A stretch of 64,000 nt of DNA. Origin: Gemmatimonadota bacterium (GTDB taxonomy: Bacteria; Gemmatimonadota; Gemmatimonadetes; JACCXV01; JAHWKZ01). The notes beneath the pieces are model-generated. The model was not told the origin of the DNA. It did not search any database and worked only from the letters and a program-made list of their open reading frames with translations. Of this stretch, positions 56,763 through 62,977 are shown piece by piece. The stretch spans positions 18,989 to 82,988 of the forward strand of contig DATLFH010000082.1 of NCBI GenBank assembly GCA_035524965.1. Reading direction: 5' to 3'. Made by a program: the position numbers and the translations under genes. Every line of letters begins with the position of its first letter. Positions within the stretch are counted from its first letter, which is position 1.

Positions 56763-58114
56763 GCGCTCGCGGGAGCGGCGCGCTCCTGACCCCGGTCGTC
56801 GCCCGCGCGCTCGGTTGGGCGGCGGCCACCTTCTACGACATCGAGCGGATCGGTCCCGCGGTTCCCGAAGGCCCCGTCCTCATCGTCGCCAACCACCCGA
56901 ACGTGTTCCTGGATGCCTTCGTCGTCTTTCGGACCGCTGGCCGGCCGGCGCGGCCGTTGGCGAAGGCGTCCCACTTCGAGAACCCCGTCTACGGGCTGTT
57001 CCTGCGGGCTCTGGGCGGCCTCCCCGTCCACCGACCGCAGGACGATCCCGCTCGCATGCCCGATAACGAGGAGACGTTCCGCGCCGCGGTGGCTGCGCTT
57101 CGCGGGGGGGACGTCGTCCAGATCTACCCCGAGGGGCGCAGTCACTCCGAGCCGGCGCTGGCGCCGCTCCGCACGGGCGCCGCGCGGATCGCGCTCCGCG
57201 CCGAGGCGGAGGCGGGGTGGAACCTCCGCCTCGCGATCGTGCCGATCGGCCTGACTTACGAGCGCAAGACCCTCTTCCGCGGGCGCGCGGCGGCGTTCAT
57301 CGGCGAGCCGTTCGGAGCAGGGGGGTATCGGCAGGCATGGGAGCGGGAGCCGGTCGCGGCCATCCGCGGGCTGACGCAGGAGATCGCGGATCGGCTCGAG
57401 GCGGTGACCCTGAACCTCACCGAAGCCGAGGACTTCGACCTGATCGAGATCGCCGAACGGTTGTACGCACGCGAGAAGGGATGGGCCGGCTGGCGCGAAC
57501 GGGAGGGCCTGGGCGGGCGCCTGCCGAGGCTGCAGGCGTTCGCGCGCGGCCTGGCGTGGCTCCGGGCGCACGATCCCGGGCGGTACCGGCGGCTGGCGCT
57601 CCGGGTCCGGCGCTACGGCCGACTGCTCGAGCGGGTCGGGGCGGGCGAAGCCGACGTGCCGCCCGAGTACCGTCGCGGCGTCGTGATCGGCTATGCGCTC
57701 CGCGAGGCACTCGCCCTCGGGATCGGCTTTCCGCCGGCCGCGGCCGGGCTGCTAGCCTGGTACGTACCTTACCTGGTCCCGCGGGTGGTCGCGCGGCTCG
57801 CCCGGCCGGAGTCGCAGGCGATCGCGACCTGGAAGCTGGCCGCGGCAATGGTCGCCTTTCCGGCCGCCTGGGTGGGATGGATCCTCGTGATCGGCTGGGC
57901 GGCCGGCGGGAAGGCGGCCCTCATCGCGGCTCTCCTGCTGCCGCCCCTCGGCCTCTTCACCCTCTGGTGGACGAAGCGCTGGGAGCGGGTACGCGAGGAC
58001 ACGGTCCTGTTCTTCCGGCTTCTATTCCGGCCCGGGCGCCGCGATCGCCTGGCCGCCTACCGCACGGTGCTCGCCGTGGAGTTCGACGCGCTCCAGCGGG
58101 AGATCACGGGCTGA
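56759..58114 (+). CDS. PlsC-family 1-acyl-sn-glycerol-3-phosphate acyltransferase with C-terminal TM domain
   Basis: HX4D motif (ANHPNVFLD), PEGRSHSE motif and C-terminal hydrophobic helices. No canonical start downstream of the previous stop; CTG at 56759 is proposed, with low confidence on the start. Confidence 0.6.
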   Translation: MSARGSGALLTPVVARALGWAAATFYDIERIGPAVPEGPVLIVANHPNVFLDAFVVFRTAGRPARPLAKASHFENPVYGLFLRALGGLPVHRPQDDPARMPDNEETFRAAVAALRGGDVVQIYPEGRSHSEPALAPLRTGAARIALRAEAEAGWNLRLAIVPIGLTYERKTLFRGRAAAFIGEPFGAGGYRQAWEREPVAAIRGLTQEIADRLEAVTLNLTEAEDFDLIEIAERLYAREKGWAGWREREGLGGRLPRLQAFARGLAWLRAHDPGRYRRLALRVRRYGRLLERVGAGEADVPPEYRRGVVIGYALREALALGIGFPPAAAGLLAWYVPYLVPRVVARLARPESQAIATWKLAAAMVAFPAAWVGWILVIGWAAGGKAALIAALLLPPLGLFTLWWTKRWERVREDTVLFFRLLFRPGRRDRLAAYRTVLAVEFDALQREITG

Positions 58115-58143
58115 TCAGGCCGGCCACCGGCCAGAACGAGGCG

Positions 58144-59520
58144 TCAGAACGGCAGCTCGATCTCGCGGAAGTTCCGGAAGACCGGGAGCCCGTACCCCCG
58201 CCCCTCAGCGGTCCGCAGCCCGTCCGGCAACGGCGCGCCGGCCGCGCCGGTGACGCCCGGAAGGTCGCCGATCGAGACGGGCGGGATCGAGGCCCCGAAC
58301 TCGGCGTTGATGACCGCGATCAGCTCGTTGGCGATGATCCCGTACCCCTTGCAGGTCGGGTGGATGCCGTCCAGGCTGAAAAGGCCGCCGGTGATGAAGT
58401 CGGTCGTCAGGAGCTGTCCGTTCGCCAGGAAGCCGTTGGCGACGATGTCGGCGAGAACGGCATTGATGTCGACGACCGCCAGGCCGTGCTTGGCGGCGAT
58501 CTGGCCGATGACCGTGTTGTAGCCCTGGACGGCTCCCGCCGCGACCGCCTGCTCCGACGCGTTCAGGACGACCGAGTTGGGGAGCGGCTGGCCGCTCCCG
58601 CCGACCGCCGCCGGCACGCCGATCCCCTGGAGCAGGAGGTCGAGCGCGTTCAGCGTGACGAGATCTCCAAGCGCGAGCGGCCCGTCGGGGCCGATGAGCG
58701 GAATCGGCTGGCCGCCGGGGCCGAGGACGGGCTGGAGGGTGGCCGGATCGACGACGACCGGCGGGATCGTCGTCATGAACGGGATCACGGTCACGTCGGG
58801 GACGTTCAGCAGGACGATCTGGTCCGTCGTGCGGCGCAGGCTGCCGATGAAGACGTCATAGACCAGGCCGAACGACGCGGTCGGGATCGGCAGCCCGGGC
58901 GCGAGCGCAGGGTCCCCGCCGCGGGTCGCGTAGCCCAGCGCCTCGTTGCTTCCCAGGAATACGGTGACGAAGGTCGCATTGCGGCGCGCCGTTTGCTCCT
59001 CCCACGTTCCGAAGCCGCGCAGGACGAAGTCGAAGAAGGCATTCCCCGACAGCGAGGTGGCCCGGCTCTCGGCGGTGAGCGCCTCGTACCCCAGCGCCCC
59101 GGGCACGCCGAGGTTGTCGTAGGGCCGCGGGAGGTCGGCATTGAGCGGCTGCCCGGCCGGCGCGGCGCGTTCGATCACGAGCGGCTGAAGGCTCACGAGC
59201 TCGAGGCGGCCCACATCCGATCCGGGGGCCGCGATGCCGGGCGAGGAGACGAGCGGTTGCTCGAAGTCCCCCTCCGCGCCGACCTGCTGGGCCAGGAGGA
59301 GAGGGTACGAACACGACTGGCCGGCCTCGCCGAGAGCCGCGCTCTGGAATCCAGCGGTCAGGGTGTTGCCGATCGCGACGTAGCGGGAGAGGTCCGCCCG
59401 TCCCGTGAGGGCCCCGGGACCGGCGGGCCCGTCGCCGTCGTCGCACGCGACAAAGGTCAGAGCGGCGCAGAGCGCGCCGATCGCAGACATCCGGAACATA
59501 AGAGCTCTCCTTTCTCTCAA
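58144..59520 (-). CDS. SGNH/GDSL-like hydrolase family lipoprotein (copy 1)
   Basis: Lipoprotein signal (ALCAALTFVAC). Block I-like IGNTLTAG. Block V DGIHPT. The ATG overlaps the TGA of copy 2. Confidence 0.6.
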   Translation of the reverse strand: MRERRALMFRMSAIGALCAALTFVACDDGDGPAGPGALTGRADLSRYVAIGNTLTAGFQSAALGEAGQSCSYPLLLAQQVGAEGDFEQPLVSSPGIAAPGSDVGRLELVSLQPLVIERAAPAGQPLNADLPRPYDNLGVPGALGYEALTAESRATSLSGNAFFDFVLRGFGTWEEQTARRNATFVTVFLGSNEALGYATRGGDPALAPGLPIPTASFGLVYDVFIGSLRRTTDQIVLLNVPDVTVIPFMTTIPPVVVDPATLQPVLGPGGQPIPLIGPDGPLALGDLVTLNALDLLLQGIGVPAAVGGSGQPLPNSVVLNASEQAVAAGAVQGYNTVIGQIAAKHGLAVVDINAVLADIVANGFLANGQLLTTDFITGGLFSLDGIHPTCKGYGIIANELIAVINAEFGASIPPVSIGDLPGVTGAAGAPLPDGLRTAEGRGYGLPVFRNFREIELPF

Positions 59521-60815
59521 AGACTATCGAAGAGCGGAACGCCGGGCAGGTCGGCGGTCCGCACGTGGGGCAGGCTCGCCCCGTATCGGTCGTTCACGGC
59601 GTCGATCAGACGGTTCGTGATCACACCGTAGCCCTTGGCGGAGAAGCGCAGCCCGTCCAGCCCGAACGCCTGGCCGGTCAGGAAGTCGGCTGTCAGCAGG
59701 ATGCCGTCCGACACCAGGCCGCCGCTCGCCACCAGGCGGACGACGGCCGCCACATCGACGACCGCCAGCTCGTGCTCGCGGGCGAGCGCCGCGATCGCAT
59801 CGTTGTAACCGGCCACGGCGTCGCGCGCCAGCGCCTGCTCGCCGGTGTCGAGGACGACGCGGTCGGGAAGCGGCGCACCGGTCCCGCCCTGCTCCTCGGG
59901 GATGCCGGTCCCCTCGGCGAGGAGCGGCCGCGCGTCGAGGGAGACCTGGTCGCCCGGATCGAGCGGGCCGTCCGGGCCCCGGAGAGGGACCGCGACCTGC
60001 CTCTGGAACGTGAGCGTGTCGCCGCTCTGGGGATCGACCACCGTCTCGATCACGGTGACCATCACCGGGTCGCCGGTCAGCGGGTTCACGACGACCGGAG
60101 GGACGGTGGTCAGGAACGGCAGCGCCGTCACGTCGGGCACGTTGAAGAGGACGATCTGATCGGTGACCGCGAGCAACTGGTCGAGAAACAGATCGTAGAG
60201 GTTCTCGAACGTGCGCACGGGCGTGGGAAGCCCCGGCGCCAGAGCCGGATCGCCGCCGGCACGCGCGTACTCGAGGACGTCGCCGGTTCCGATCGAGAGG
60301 AGCACGAAGCTCGCGTCCAGCTCGGCGGCCTGCTCGGCGAACGTGCCGCGATCCCGCAGCACGATGTCGTAGAACGGGTTGCCGCCGATCGAGGTGGCCG
60401 AGCTCCTGGCTACCGCGGCCTCGGCCACGCGCGCCCCCGGCACGCCCAGGTTGTCGTAGGGGCGGTCGAGGTCGGCGTCGAGCGGCGGGCCCCCGCGTGG
60501 AAGCCGCTCGATGACCGGCGGGAAGGCGCTCACGAGCGACAGACGGCCGCCCGTGTCACCTTCGGTGGCGATGCCGGGATCCGGGATCAAAGGTTGCACG
60601 AACGCGCTCCCGCCGGCCTGGCGGGCGAAGAGCGCCGGCACGGACGTCTCCTGGCCCGTCCGGAAGAGCGCGCCGTCGCGAGCGCCGGCGACCAGGCCGT
60701 CGCCGATCGCCACGATGCGCTCGAGATCGAGGTCGCCCGTGCGGTTCGGGAAGCTCTCGAGCGGACCCCCTTCGCCGAGGCATCCTCCGACCATGAGCGC
60801 CGCCGCGATCGGCAC
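59517..60815 (-). CDS. SGNH/GDSL-like lipoprotein paralog (copy 2, catalytic His and Ser positions substituted)
   Basis: Roughly 45% identical to copy 1 by eye (DRPYDNLGVPGA, DQIVLFNVPDVT shared). Block I is GDGLVAG. Block V is DGLRFS with no His. Lipobox MVGGC. The start is uncertain (GTG at 60815 or ATG at 60794). Confidence 0.55.
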   Translation of the reverse strand: MPIAAALMVGGCLGEGGPLESFPNRTGDLDLERIVAIGDGLVAGARDGALFRTGQETSVPALFARQAGGSAFVQPLIPDPGIATEGDTGGRLSLVSAFPPVIERLPRGGPPLDADLDRPYDNLGVPGARVAEAAVARSSATSIGGNPFYDIVLRDRGTFAEQAAELDASFVLLSIGTGDVLEYARAGGDPALAPGLPTPVRTFENLYDLFLDQLLAVTDQIVLFNVPDVTALPFLTTVPPVVVNPLTGDPVMVTVIETVVDPQSGDTLTFQRQVAVPLRGPDGPLDPGDQVSLDARPLLAEGTGIPEEQGGTGAPLPDRVVLDTGEQALARDAVAGYNDAIAALAREHELAVVDVAAVVRLVASGGLVSDGILLTADFLTGQAFGLDGLRFSAKGYGVITNRLIDAVNDRYGASLPHVRTADLPGVPLFDSL

Positions 60816-60862
60816 GAGGGCGGGCCGGCGGACGCGTGAGCCTCCGGGATCCTTCCGCGCGA

Positions 60863-61504
60863 TCAGGACCGCTCCTCGACGGGGAGGCCGGCCTTCTTCC
60901 AGGCGGGAAACCCTCCCCCCAGCACTCGAACGTGGGGATATCCGTATGCGGCCAGGATGCGGGCCGCGTCGCGCGCGCGCGCGGTTCCCTCGGCATACAG
61001 GAGGACGACCTGATCGTCCCGGACGTGGAGGTCGACGAGGTTGTCCTCCAGGGCATCGAGCGGGACCAGCTTGGCCCCCCGGATGTGCCCCTCGGTCACG
61101 TACACGGGAGCCGTTCGCAGGTCGATCACGTACCACTTCGGTCGGGCGGCCTGCATCAGCGAGTGCGCGATTCTGGGCTCCAGGATGCGGAAGGCGCCGG
61201 GCGCGTGGGGGTCGCCCGCCCCCGCTCGGGGGATGAGCTCGCGGACCTCGCCCGCAGACCGGCCGATGATGATCTGGAGCCGCCCGCCGGTGCTGTCGAT
61301 GACGTACTGGGTGTCGGCGACCCACGGGCGGGCCTCCGCGCGCTCGGGTTGCGGGCCGTCCGCCGGCCGCCCTCGGCAGGCGGCCGTCAGGAGCGTCGCG
61401 CCCAGCCCGGCCGCAACGAGCCCGGCCGCAACGAGCCCGGCCGCGCCGAGCGCGAGTCGCGGCTCAGCGGCCCGGCGCCGCAAACCGCTCCTCCTCCCGG
61501 ACAT
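60863..61504 (-). CDS. rhodanese-homology-domain lipoprotein (no catalytic Cys evident)
   Basis: C-terminal rhodanese fold (YVIDLRTAPVYVTEGHIRGAKLVPL...LLYAEGTARA...GGGFPAWKKAGLP). Signal peptide with AAGLVAAGLVAAGLG repeats and lipobox LLTAAC. Confidence 0.55.
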   Translation of the reverse strand: MSGRRSGLRRRAAEPRLALGAAGLVAAGLVAAGLGATLLTAACRGRPADGPQPERAEARPWVADTQYVIDSTGGRLQIIIGRSAGEVRELIPRAGAGDPHAPGAFRILEPRIAHSLMQAARPKWYVIDLRTAPVYVTEGHIRGAKLVPLDALEDNLVDLHVRDDQVVLLYAEGTARARDAARILAAYGYPHVRVLGGGFPAWKKAGLPVEERS

Positions 61505-61925
61505 AATCCCCGCCCGATCCCCCGGCCTTCTGATCCAGCCGGATGGACTCGATCGTCATCGAGCGGTCCATCGACTTCGCCATGTCGTAGACGGTCAGCA
61601 GCGCGACGGCGACCGCGGTCAGGGCTTCCATCTCGGCCCCCGTCCGGGCGGTGGCCACGACCTCCGCGCTCGCCCTGACCCCGGGGAGCGACGGATCGGC
61701 CTGGATCGCGATTGCGACGTGGTCGAGCGGCAGCGGATGGCAGAGCGGGATCAGGCCGGGGGTCCGCTTCGCGGCCTGGATGCCGGCTACCCGGGCCACT
61801 GCGAGCGCGTCTCCCTTGGAGAGCCGCCCCTCAGTGAGCGCCGCGAGCGCGGACTCCGACATGCGGAGCGCGCCGGAAGCGCTGGCCACCCGCCGGGTCG
61901 GCGCCTTGGCAGAGACGTCCACCAT
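61464..61925 (-). CDS. moaC: cyclic pyranopterin monophosphate synthase accessory protein MoaC
   Basis: MVDVSAKAPTRRVA...GIQAAKRTPGLIPLCHPLPL...GAEMEALTAVAVALLTVYDMAKS is closely similar to MoaC. ATG at 61925; a CTG at 61967 overlapping the accA stop is an alternative start. Confidence 0.8.
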   Translation of the reverse strand: MVDVSAKAPTRRVASASGALRMSESALAALTEGRLSKGDALAVARVAGIQAAKRTPGLIPLCHPLPLDHVAIAIQADPSLPGVRASAEVVATARTGAEMEALTAVAVALLTVYDMAKSMDRSMTIESIRLDQKAGGSGGDYVREEERFAAPGR

Positions 61926-61963
61926 CCGCGCCCGGCCGGCGGGATCGATGTGGGTCGGTCCGG

Positions 61964-62977
61964 TCAGCGGGGCGTCCGCGCGGGAACGTCCGTGCGCTCG
62001 GCGGCGTGAATCCCCGCGTCGCTGCGCCAGGCCCCCATACCGCGGTACTTCTCGCGCCGGCGGCGGATCCGCTCGTCCGGTTCCCAAGCGGACACCTCCT
62101 GCAGGTGCCGTCGCAGGGCGTCCTCGACCGCTCGCGCGGTGGCGGCGTAGTCGGTGTGCGCCCCCCCCATAGGCTCGGTGACGATCTCGTCGACGACCCC
62201 CATCTCGTAGAGGTCCCGGGCGGTGATCTTCATGGCGCGGGCGGCGAGCTCCCGCTTCTCGCCGTCCTTCCATAGGATCGCGGCGCACCCTTCGGGGCTG
62301 ATCACCGAGTAGAACGCATTCTCCAGAATCAGGATGCGATCGGTCACCCCGATCCCGAGCGCGCCGCCCGAGGCCCCCTCCCCGGTGACGACCGAGATCG
62401 TGGGCACCGCCAGCCCCGCCATCTCGCGCAGGTTCCGCGCGATCGCCTCGGCCTGGCCGCGTTCCTCGGCGCCGATTCCGGGATACGCGCCGGGGGTGTC
62501 GATCAAGGTGACGACGGGGTGGTCGAACTTCTCGGCCAGGCGCATGAGACGCAGCGCCTTCCGGTACCCCTCGGGATTGGGCATGCCGAAGTTGCGGCGC
62601 AGGTTCTCCTTCGTGTCGCGGCCCTTCTGCTGCCCGACGATCATCACCGGCCGGCCGTCGAAGCGCGCCAGCCCGCCGATCATCGCATGGTCGTCGGCGT
62701 AGCCTCGGTCGCCGTGGAGCTCGAGCCAGTCGGTGAAGCAGCGCTCGATCAGGTCGAGCGGGTAGGGGCGCCGGGGATGACGCGCGAGCTGGACGCGCTG
62801 GAGGGGGGTGAGGTGGTTGAAGATGTCTTCCTTGAGGCGCGCCAGTTTGGCGTGAAGCGTCGCCAGCTCGGCCGAGACATCGATCCCCCGCTCGCCGGCC
62901 AAGGATTCCATCTCGGCGATCTTCTCCTCGATCTCCACGATCGGCCGCTCGAAATCGAGATAGATGCCGTGCGTCAC
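61964..62977 (-). CDS. accA: acetyl-CoA carboxylase carboxyltransferase subunit alpha
   Basis: Conserved AccA core (LDFERPIVEIEEKI...GQQKGRDTKENLRRNFGMPNPEGYRKALRLMRLAEKF...). Confidence 0.9.
   Translation of the reverse strand: MTHGIYLDFERPIVEIEEKIAEMESLAGERGIDVSAELATLHAKLARLKEDIFNHLTPLQRVQLARHPRRPYPLDLIERCFTDWLELHGDRGYADDHAMIGGLARFDGRPVMIVGQQKGRDTKENLRRNFGMPNPEGYRKALRLMRLAEKFDHPVVTLIDTPGAYPGIGAEERGQAEAIARNLREMAGLAVPTISVVTGEGASGGALGIGVTDRILILENAFYSVISPEGCAAILWKDGEKRELAARAMKITARDLYEMGVVDEIVTEPMGGAHTDYAATARAVEDALRRHLQEVSAWEPDERIRRRREKYRGMGAWRSDAGIHAAERTDVPARTPR

Follow-up and report, generated by a model that had tools for sequence, protein, structure and literature searches.

Two lipoprotein genes lie side by side in a 64-kb stretch of DNA (the window; G+C content, ∼70%) from a Gemmatimonadota metagenome-assembled genome (MAG), where their minus-strand open reading frames (ORFs) fill positions 58144 to 60815. 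The original prediction, made from the sequence alone, was that they encode an active SGNH-type enzyme and a catalytically dead paralogue. Is this so, and what would such a pair do? Judged from its sequence and those of its relatives, the upstream gene, copy 2, is a conserved pseudoenzyme and not a relic, and purifying selection keeps its clade. In this genome, the downstream gene, copy 1, may not encode an enzyme with normal activity. The predicted pairing thus stood as far as copy 2 is concerned, whereas the activity of copy 1 became uncertain and the pairing itself turned out not to be obligatory. The genes and their junction are as follows.

59517 to 60815, minus strand: copy 2, the upstream gene; predicted SGNH-fold lipoprotein and putative pseudoenzyme, 432 amino acids (aa) from GTG 60815 (ORF; HUP01894.1; P0057/P0221)
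59500 to 59520, minus strand: junction between the genes, read from the sequence, with the TGA stop of copy 2 (59519-59517), a TTG (59520-59518), and AAGGAG ahead of the ATG at 59499
58144 to 59499, minus strand: copy 1, the downstream gene; predicted active-type SGNH-fold lipoprotein, 451 aa (HUP01893.1)

Paralogy and predicted fold of the two lipoproteins

Both genes are entered at NCBI as "hypothetical protein" (VM737_10290 for copy 1 and VM737_10295 for copy 2). Aligned by BLASTP, the two proteins were 51% identical over 402 aa (E = 2e-116), which is far past chance, and both have lipoprotein-type N termini; they are paralogues, as had been predicted. The shared blocks that had been cited for this kinship are also there: RPYDNLGVPGA occurs in both copies, DQIVLLNVPDVT in copy 1 corresponds to DQIVLFNVPDVT in copy 2, and KGYGIIANELI corresponds to KGYGVITNRLI. 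By inspection, the lipobox of copy 1 reads ...LTFVAC and that of copy 2 ...LMVGGC; the homologues likewise have a signal peptide, a Cys, and an acidic stretch.

The two copies matched hundreds of members of one family, with E values of 1e-80 to 1e-200 over 85 to 100% of their length. The family consists of lipoproteins of ∼430 to 480 aa from five phyla and comprises at least 513 clusters at 50% identity (E ≤ 1e-30). We aligned it in sets of 120, ∼215, and ∼135 sequences. The usual state of blocks I, II, III, and V is G[ND]SLT, NLG(A)VPGA, GNND, and DGVHP[TS], respectively, and the Gly of block II (NLGVPGA) is kept in both copies.

Matches to named families were weak. The only Pfam matches of either copy were to GDSL families: with PF13472 (Lipase_GDSL_2; cutoff, 32.9 bits), copy 1 scored 33.1 bits, barely over the cutoff, and copy 2 scored 24.6 bits, under it. 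A second GDSL score of copy 2 in the scan with PF13472 and PF00657 was likewise under its cutoff (21.3 versus 23.6 bits). A scan of NCBIfam gave no meaningful family for copy 1 or copy 2, and when copy 1 by itself was searched by sequence against the PDB, only weak, spurious matches came back. When the family profile was compared to the PDB, the matches were weak but correct: solved SGNH enzymes had iGDSiT opposite block I and GxNDV opposite block III. The predicted assignment of the blocks was thus borne out by the three family alignments plus the profile-to-PDB alignment of blocks I and III.

AlphaFold2 models built on the family alignments had predicted local distance difference test (pLDDT) scores of 91.8 (copy 1) and 94.2 (copy 2), and all the top matches of both models in a Foldseek search of the PDB were SGNH/GDSL esterases; those of copy 2 were SGNH lipid esterases throughout. 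In these confident models both copies have the three-layer alpha/beta/alpha SGNH fold; structure prediction, which had been proposed as a check on membership in the fold, agreed with that membership. About 180 to 240 of the ∼450 residues were superposed, which corresponds to an SGNH core plus large insertions, and there was no close solved relative. Among the structural neighbors that act on lipid were Legionella PlaA, the Vibrio thermolabile hemolysin/VvPlpA, Pseudomonas EstA, and mammalian AOAH. Compared to these enzymes and to the Photobacterium J15 GDSL esterase (5xtu/8hwp), all of the SGNH/GDSL superfamily (PF13472/PF00657), about half of each copy aligns, at 10 to 20% identity, and the copies differ in being lipoproteins with large insertions. 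They also differ at the Ser of block I, which neither copy has: copy 1 has Thr and copy 2 has Gly.

Copy 2 and its clade

The family alignments placed the following residues of copy 2 at the catalytic positions.

60696 to 60698, minus strand: GGC codon, Gly at the nucleophile position of block I (GDGLV)
60282 to 60284, minus strand: Gly at the Asn position of block III (GTGD)
59646 to 59657, minus strand: block V, D-G-L-R, with the Asp kept and Arg in place of the catalytic His

The DGLRFS of copy 2 had been read as lacking the His and its GDGL as lacking Ser or Thr, and the alignments confirmed this: Gly, Gly, and Arg stand at the Ser, Asn, and His positions. A better alignment might have placed a conserved Ser or His elsewhere in copy 2, but no Ser, Asn, or His was found at the catalytic positions or nearby. 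In the SGNH lipase SrL, replacing the Ser, the Asn, or the His with Ala abolishes activity in each case, whereas changing the Gly of block II to Ala is tolerated (PMC10779480).

Searching with copy 2 gave ∼100 clusters (90% identity) of closer relatives. In a neighbor-joining tree the copy 2 clade was monophyletic, with 102 terminals, and belonged to the Gemmatimonadota. Only 1 of the 102 terminals (P0196) has Ser in the nucleophile column, which in this clade holds G, D, or A. At the Asn position stand T, S, G, A, Q, N, H, or E, and at the His position mostly R, S, T, or Y, alongside some H and G. Because the replacements vary within the clade, the former catalytic positions appear to have been abandoned. 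The sites that are conserved (≥90%) in the active clade and not in the pseudoenzyme clade include the catalytic sites and those right beside them (S46, L47, N185, H380, and P381), plus ∼10 others. The pseudoenzyme clade has near-invariant residues of its own, namely, D52, R96, R109, D194, D217, D375, Q387, K399, R424, and T425.

The two genes are under similar constraint. Over 66 genome pairs, the identity between orthologues was 67.1% for the pseudoenzymes and 68.3% for the active-type proteins, and the ratio of nonsynonymous to synonymous substitution rates (dN/dS; NG86) was 0.23 to 0.26 for the nearest pairs of both genes. Copy 2 itself departs from ≥90%-conserved positions at two sites. 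That copy 2 is a decaying pseudogene was ruled out by the size of the clade, the dN/dS values, and the confidence of the model.

Could copy 2 still be an enzyme, its active site rewired from clade-specific residues, and the pair be two different catalysts? The near-invariant polar residues (D52 to T425), which in the active clade are either missing or variable, would fit such a site, as would a frequent PHxRT motif and a degree of conservation equal to that of the active clade. However, the three canonical positions are variable, as expected of abandoned catalytic sites; around block I there is no conserved Ser, Cys, or Thr to stand in for the nucleophile; and losing any one of Ser, Asn, and His kills an SGNH lipase (PMC10779480). 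We therefore regard a rewired enzyme as very unlikely.

A noncatalytic SGNH fold is also known from the OSK domain of Drosophila Oskar (5a4a). That domain, however, is a eukaryotic RNA-binding domain of an unrelated lineage, whereas copy 2 would be a bacterial envelope lipoprotein encoded beside its active-type paralogue.

A large subgroup of the pseudoenzymes (e.g., L021, L023, L026 to L028, L030, and L080) has GDD.., GTSD, and DGARFT at blocks I, III, and V. The Asp at the nucleophile position and the Arg at the His position may form a salt bridge in the dead site, a pattern for which kinship was not controlled. Outside the Gemmatimonadota pseudoenzyme clade, the nucleophile is changed in P0243 (GDTLT), P0265 (GDALT), P0272 (GDNYV), P0325 (GDDLM), P0331 (GSNMM), and P0336 (GDRYT), some of which keep the Asn and the His. 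Since these six changed independently, loss of catalytic residues recurs in the family.

The arrangements found at the locus among related Gemmatimonadota, whose MAGs are incomplete and many of whose active copies (YGNLGVPGA) escape the pattern used to scan genomes, were as follows.

13 distinct loci, window included: pseudoenzyme gene followed by the active-type copy (frameshifted in L020)
About 12 to 13 loci, about half of the related loci: pseudoenzyme gene alone, with space downstream for a second gene
1 lineage: active-type copy alone

In a tree of the genes at the locus, the active and pseudoenzyme clades mirror each other, with congruent branching, which argues for one old duplication; a recent local duplication was ruled out because the mirroring extends across lineages. 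According to the same tree, the active-type copy was lost independently at least three or four times after the duplication and the pseudoenzyme once. One of the former losses is in L003, which is closest to the window's copy 2 (78% identity) and has cleanly lost its active-type copy. In L020 (479-3372), the active-type copy is spread over two frames, one with blocks I to III and the other with block V; either the gene is frameshifted or its sequence contains an error.

Copy 1 and the state of the locus in this genome

The corresponding residues of copy 1 are listed below.

59443 to 59445, minus strand: Cys19 of the lipobox (...LTFVAC/DDGDG), found by inspection; homologues are alike
59362 to 59364, minus strand: codon 46, ACC, Thr at the nucleophile position of block I (GNTLT versus G[ND]SLT in the family), from the family alignments
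58945 to 58947, minus strand: Asn185 of block III (GSNE), the oxyanion-hole Asn, kept; from the family alignment and the profile alignment to GxND
58360 to 58371, minus strand: block V, D377-G-I-H380 (DxxH), with the catalytic Asp and His kept, from the family alignment

Copy 1 had been described as keeping its catalytic blocks. This is correct for block V, where DGIHPT supplies DxxH, but not for block I, where GNTLT has Thr instead of Ser. The nucleophile column has Ser in 97% of the active-clade sequences. The related loci L004 and L005 have AGC (Ser) in a near-identical codon context, from which the ACC of copy 1 differs by a single base. Among ∼135 diverse representatives, Thr was found elsewhere only in P0243, which makes 2 of ∼350 family sequences overall; no other homologue or locus examined had Thr in this column. 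The identical copy 1 protein is recorded from the NCBI and Logan assemblies, which argues against an assembler artifact at Thr46, although the underlying reads may be the same. Ser-His hydrolases whose nucleophilic Ser is changed to Thr usually become slower by orders of magnitude. Because Thr occupies the position of the Ser nucleophile, the label "active partner" is doubtful for copy 1 in this genome. Overall, copy 1 departs from ≥90%-conserved positions of the active clade at three sites, Thr46 plus two others; one of these, E186, is common to its closest relatives.

Active-type members in the Gemmatimonadota also have an extra C-terminal tail of ∼35 aa, modeled with low confidence and ending in a conserved motif like ..LP.FR.F..I.LPF. 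In copy 1 the tail comprises residues ∼417 to 451 (58147 to 58250 of the window); the pseudoenzyme clade stops right after LPG[VI]PL.

The two genes had been said to be joined by an ATGA overlap at 59520/59517. The letters there read TTGA, so that the 4-nucleotide (nt) overlap is that of a TTG start across the TGA stop of copy 2; the whole junction reads ...CTT TGA GAGAAAGGAGAGCTCTT ATG. The start of copy 1 at NCBI is ATG 59499, which is 17 nt past the stop of copy 2 and has AAGGAG in front of it. Starting at TTG 59520 would extend the protein by MRERRAL. A 4-nt overlap between the pseudoenzyme stop and a GTG start of the active-type gene is found in eight related tandem loci, which makes the overlapping TTG start plausible in the window; from the sequence, both starts are plausible and indistinguishable here. 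A scan of 57800 to 61600 found no promoters or terminators, and the G+C content of ∼70% makes such a scan uninformative.

The start of copy 2 concerns the following features upstream.

60864 to 60866, minus strand: CTG where, by comparison with L003, the ancestral copy 2 start stood; it overlaps the TGA stop of the rhodanese gene and has GAGGAG ahead
60863 to 62977, minus strand: codirectional upstream genes identified with Pfam, in the same order in related loci: rhodanese lipoprotein (60863-61504), moaC (∼61464-62000), and accA (61964-62977), with dnaE further upstream

In L003, the closest relative, the ancestral start is a GTG that overlaps the rhodanese stop and has GAGGAG in front. In the window, the copy 2 frame is open upstream as far as 60866. 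The annotated start, GTG 60815 (60813-60815), is without a Shine-Dalgarno sequence, and the resulting signal peptide is without a charged n-region. The rhodanese-domain protein, whose stop (60863) overlaps the ancestral start, also has a lipoprotein-type N terminus (..LLTAAC).

Thr46 and the uncertain start of copy 2 suggest that the locus may be functionally weakened, although both ORFs are intact and conserved. A stronger version is that the locus is decaying in this genome: Ser46Thr would have inactivated copy 1, the change from GTG to CTG would have left copy 2 poorly translated, and neither gene would be of much importance here. The rarity of Thr at the nucleophile fits this, as do the CTG at the ancestral start with no Shine-Dalgarno sequence at the next GTG, the repeated loss of one or the other copy among relatives, and the frameshifted active-type copy of L020. 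Against decay, neither ORF is broken, departures from conserved positions are few (three sites in copy 1 and two in copy 2), and dN/dS versus the nearest relatives is ∼0.23 for both genes. We consider decay improbable.

fadL linkage, substrate, and history

Outside the Gemmatimonadota, the family occurs in MAGs of Acidobacteriota (Thermoanaerobaculia, Vicinamibacteria, and Holophagales), Bacteroidota, Ignavibacteria-type bacteria, and Calditrichota. Among loci L031 to L090, those with upstream sequence available were considered informative. In all 54 informative non-Gemmatimonadota loci, a fadL/todX gene (PF03349, Toluene_X) lies directly upstream on the same strand; for example, at L042:4642-7314 fadL/todX (Toluene_X, E = 9e-76) is followed by the SGNH gene. 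Three more loci with independent gene calls had the same order. Because the surrounding genes vary, fadL and the SGNH gene form a self-contained two-gene cassette.

A parallel is known from Vibrio cholerae, in which the surface lipoprotein VolA, a lysophospholipase cotranscribed with fadL, frees fatty acid for uptake (Pride et al. 2013, PMC3656444). VolA is an 81-kDa GxSxG lipase of pfam12262 (PMC3656444). In both cases fadL is followed by a gene for a lipoprotein that hydrolyzes, or would hydrolyze, acyl esters, and the likeness is a feature of the non-Gemmatimonadota relatives; the window and the other Gemmatimonadota loci are without an adjacent fadL. VolA, moreover, is an alpha/beta-hydrolase, whereas the family studied here has the SGNH fold, so the resemblance is one of analogy and not homology. 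In the literature we found no paper on the SGNH lipoprotein family, and VolA was the only described parallel found.

The substrate had been left as envelope lipid or glycan esters. Of these, the fadL linkage in other phyla favors lipid acyl esters and disfavors glycan esters. The substrates of the family might nonetheless be O-acetyl esters of peptidoglycan, exopolysaccharide, or xylan-like glycans, and FadL elsewhere might import some other hydrophobic or amphipathic product. The high-ranking structural neighbors CE16, Axe2, other acetyl-xylan esterases, and the peptidoglycan O-acetylesterase Ape1 point in this direction. However, lipid-acting SGNH enzymes rank equally high, and because the core of the fold is generic to all SGNH enzymes, the identity of the neighbors says little about the substrate. 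In addition, the gene directly upstream in every informative non-Gemmatimonadota locus belongs to a channel family that carries hydrophobic molecules. A glycan substrate thus seems to us unlikely.

We favor, with moderate confidence, the following explanation of the whole. At the outer membrane, the ancestral protein probably cleaved the acyl esters of lipids from the envelope or the environment, and the freed fatty acid would then have been taken up by FadL, by analogy with FadL-VolA of Vibrio. The active members of the family, which have the full catalytic set (Ser, Asn, and His) and a FadL partner, would do the same. In the Gemmatimonadota, where the gene ends the dnaE-accA-moaC-rhodanese string, it was duplicated once, long ago. 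The upstream copy lost its Ser and usually also its Asn and His, and since then purifying selection has kept it as a predicted noncatalytic protein. Most likely, this protein serves the active-type copy as a partner that binds lipids or acyl chains or acts as a scaffold: translational coupling suggests that the two work together, perhaps in physical contact, when both are present. Because the pseudoenzyme survives alone, it appears to have a role of its own as well, and after loss of the active-type copy, it is probably a stand-alone binding lipoprotein. In the present genome, the recent change of Ser to Thr at the nucleophile of copy 1 should greatly weaken, or at least alter, hydrolysis, and the locus may now encode no fully competent esterase.

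Several points weigh against this explanation or parts of it. There is no FadL-like ORF in the window or in any of ∼30 Gemmatimonadota loci, so the link to lipid uptake is transferred from other phyla. The structural neighbors of the models also include acetyl-xylan and other carbohydrate esterases. Since the pseudoenzyme stays alone in ∼12 to 13 loci, an obligate heterodimer with its neighbor is unlikely. Thr46 might be tolerated, or it might vary within the population, and P0243 also has Thr. Finally, the translation start of copy 2 in this genome is uncertain and possibly weakened.

A different reading takes the dead clade to be a new kind of envelope protein, one that binds lipid or fatty acid or hands it over and has assumed part of the task of FadL in other phyla. 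This would explain why the pseudoenzyme is retained with greater fidelity than the catalytic sister and is able to stand alone. The same reading takes Thr variants such as copy 1 to be not broken but functional enzymes whose chemistry is altered, perhaps toward slow-turnover hydrolysis or acyl transfer. We give it only a small chance of being correct.

Tandem enzyme-pseudoenzyme paralogues are already well known, as are SGNH hydrolases. The pseudo-SGNH lipoprotein clade of the Gemmatimonadota, the cross-phylum fadL-SGNH cassette, and the Thr-nucleophile variant appear to be undescribed. The cassette suggests that hydrolase-coupled fatty-acid uptake, for which VolA is the precedent, evolved independently with a different fold, and it provides a functional lead for an unnamed family of at least 513 clusters. 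A dead paralogue that evolves as slowly as the live one, is often translationally coupled to it, and outlasts it should be a good system for studying the roles of pseudoenzymes in the bacterial envelope. The findings on copies 1 and 2, whose chemistry is predicted, do not overturn current views.

The wider Gemmatimonadota neighborhood is a string of spoU, DUF4837, dnaE, accA, moaC, and the rhodanese gene, with the SGNH gene or genes at its end. Facing it are convergent genes: moaE, moaD, a hydrolase gene, a GGDEF gene, and gyrA/B. In Ignavibacteria-type loci, acc genes also lie near the fadL-SGNH module, in the order mutS2-accC-accB-fadL-SGNH-SPOR (L042, L050, L059, L060, L066, L068, L071, L074, L086, and L087). 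We considered the adjacency of acc genes as a functional link and held it to be incidental, since it occurs in two lineages only and not in most Acidobacteriota loci.

In the window, a gene for a PlsC-type acyltransferase (PF01553; 56780 to 58111, plus strand) with a long C-terminal hydrophobic region is convergent to copy 1. The same gene is present in L003 and not in the other Gemmatimonadota loci. The window and L003 are without a small conserved ORF of 65 to 70 aa with two CxxC pairs (..ACYRCGS..ICRxCLxRVEAQNE..), which in some Gemmatimonadota lies between the rhodanese and pseudo-SGNH genes (L001:7802-8014, L002:7817-8014, and L005:6479-6679).

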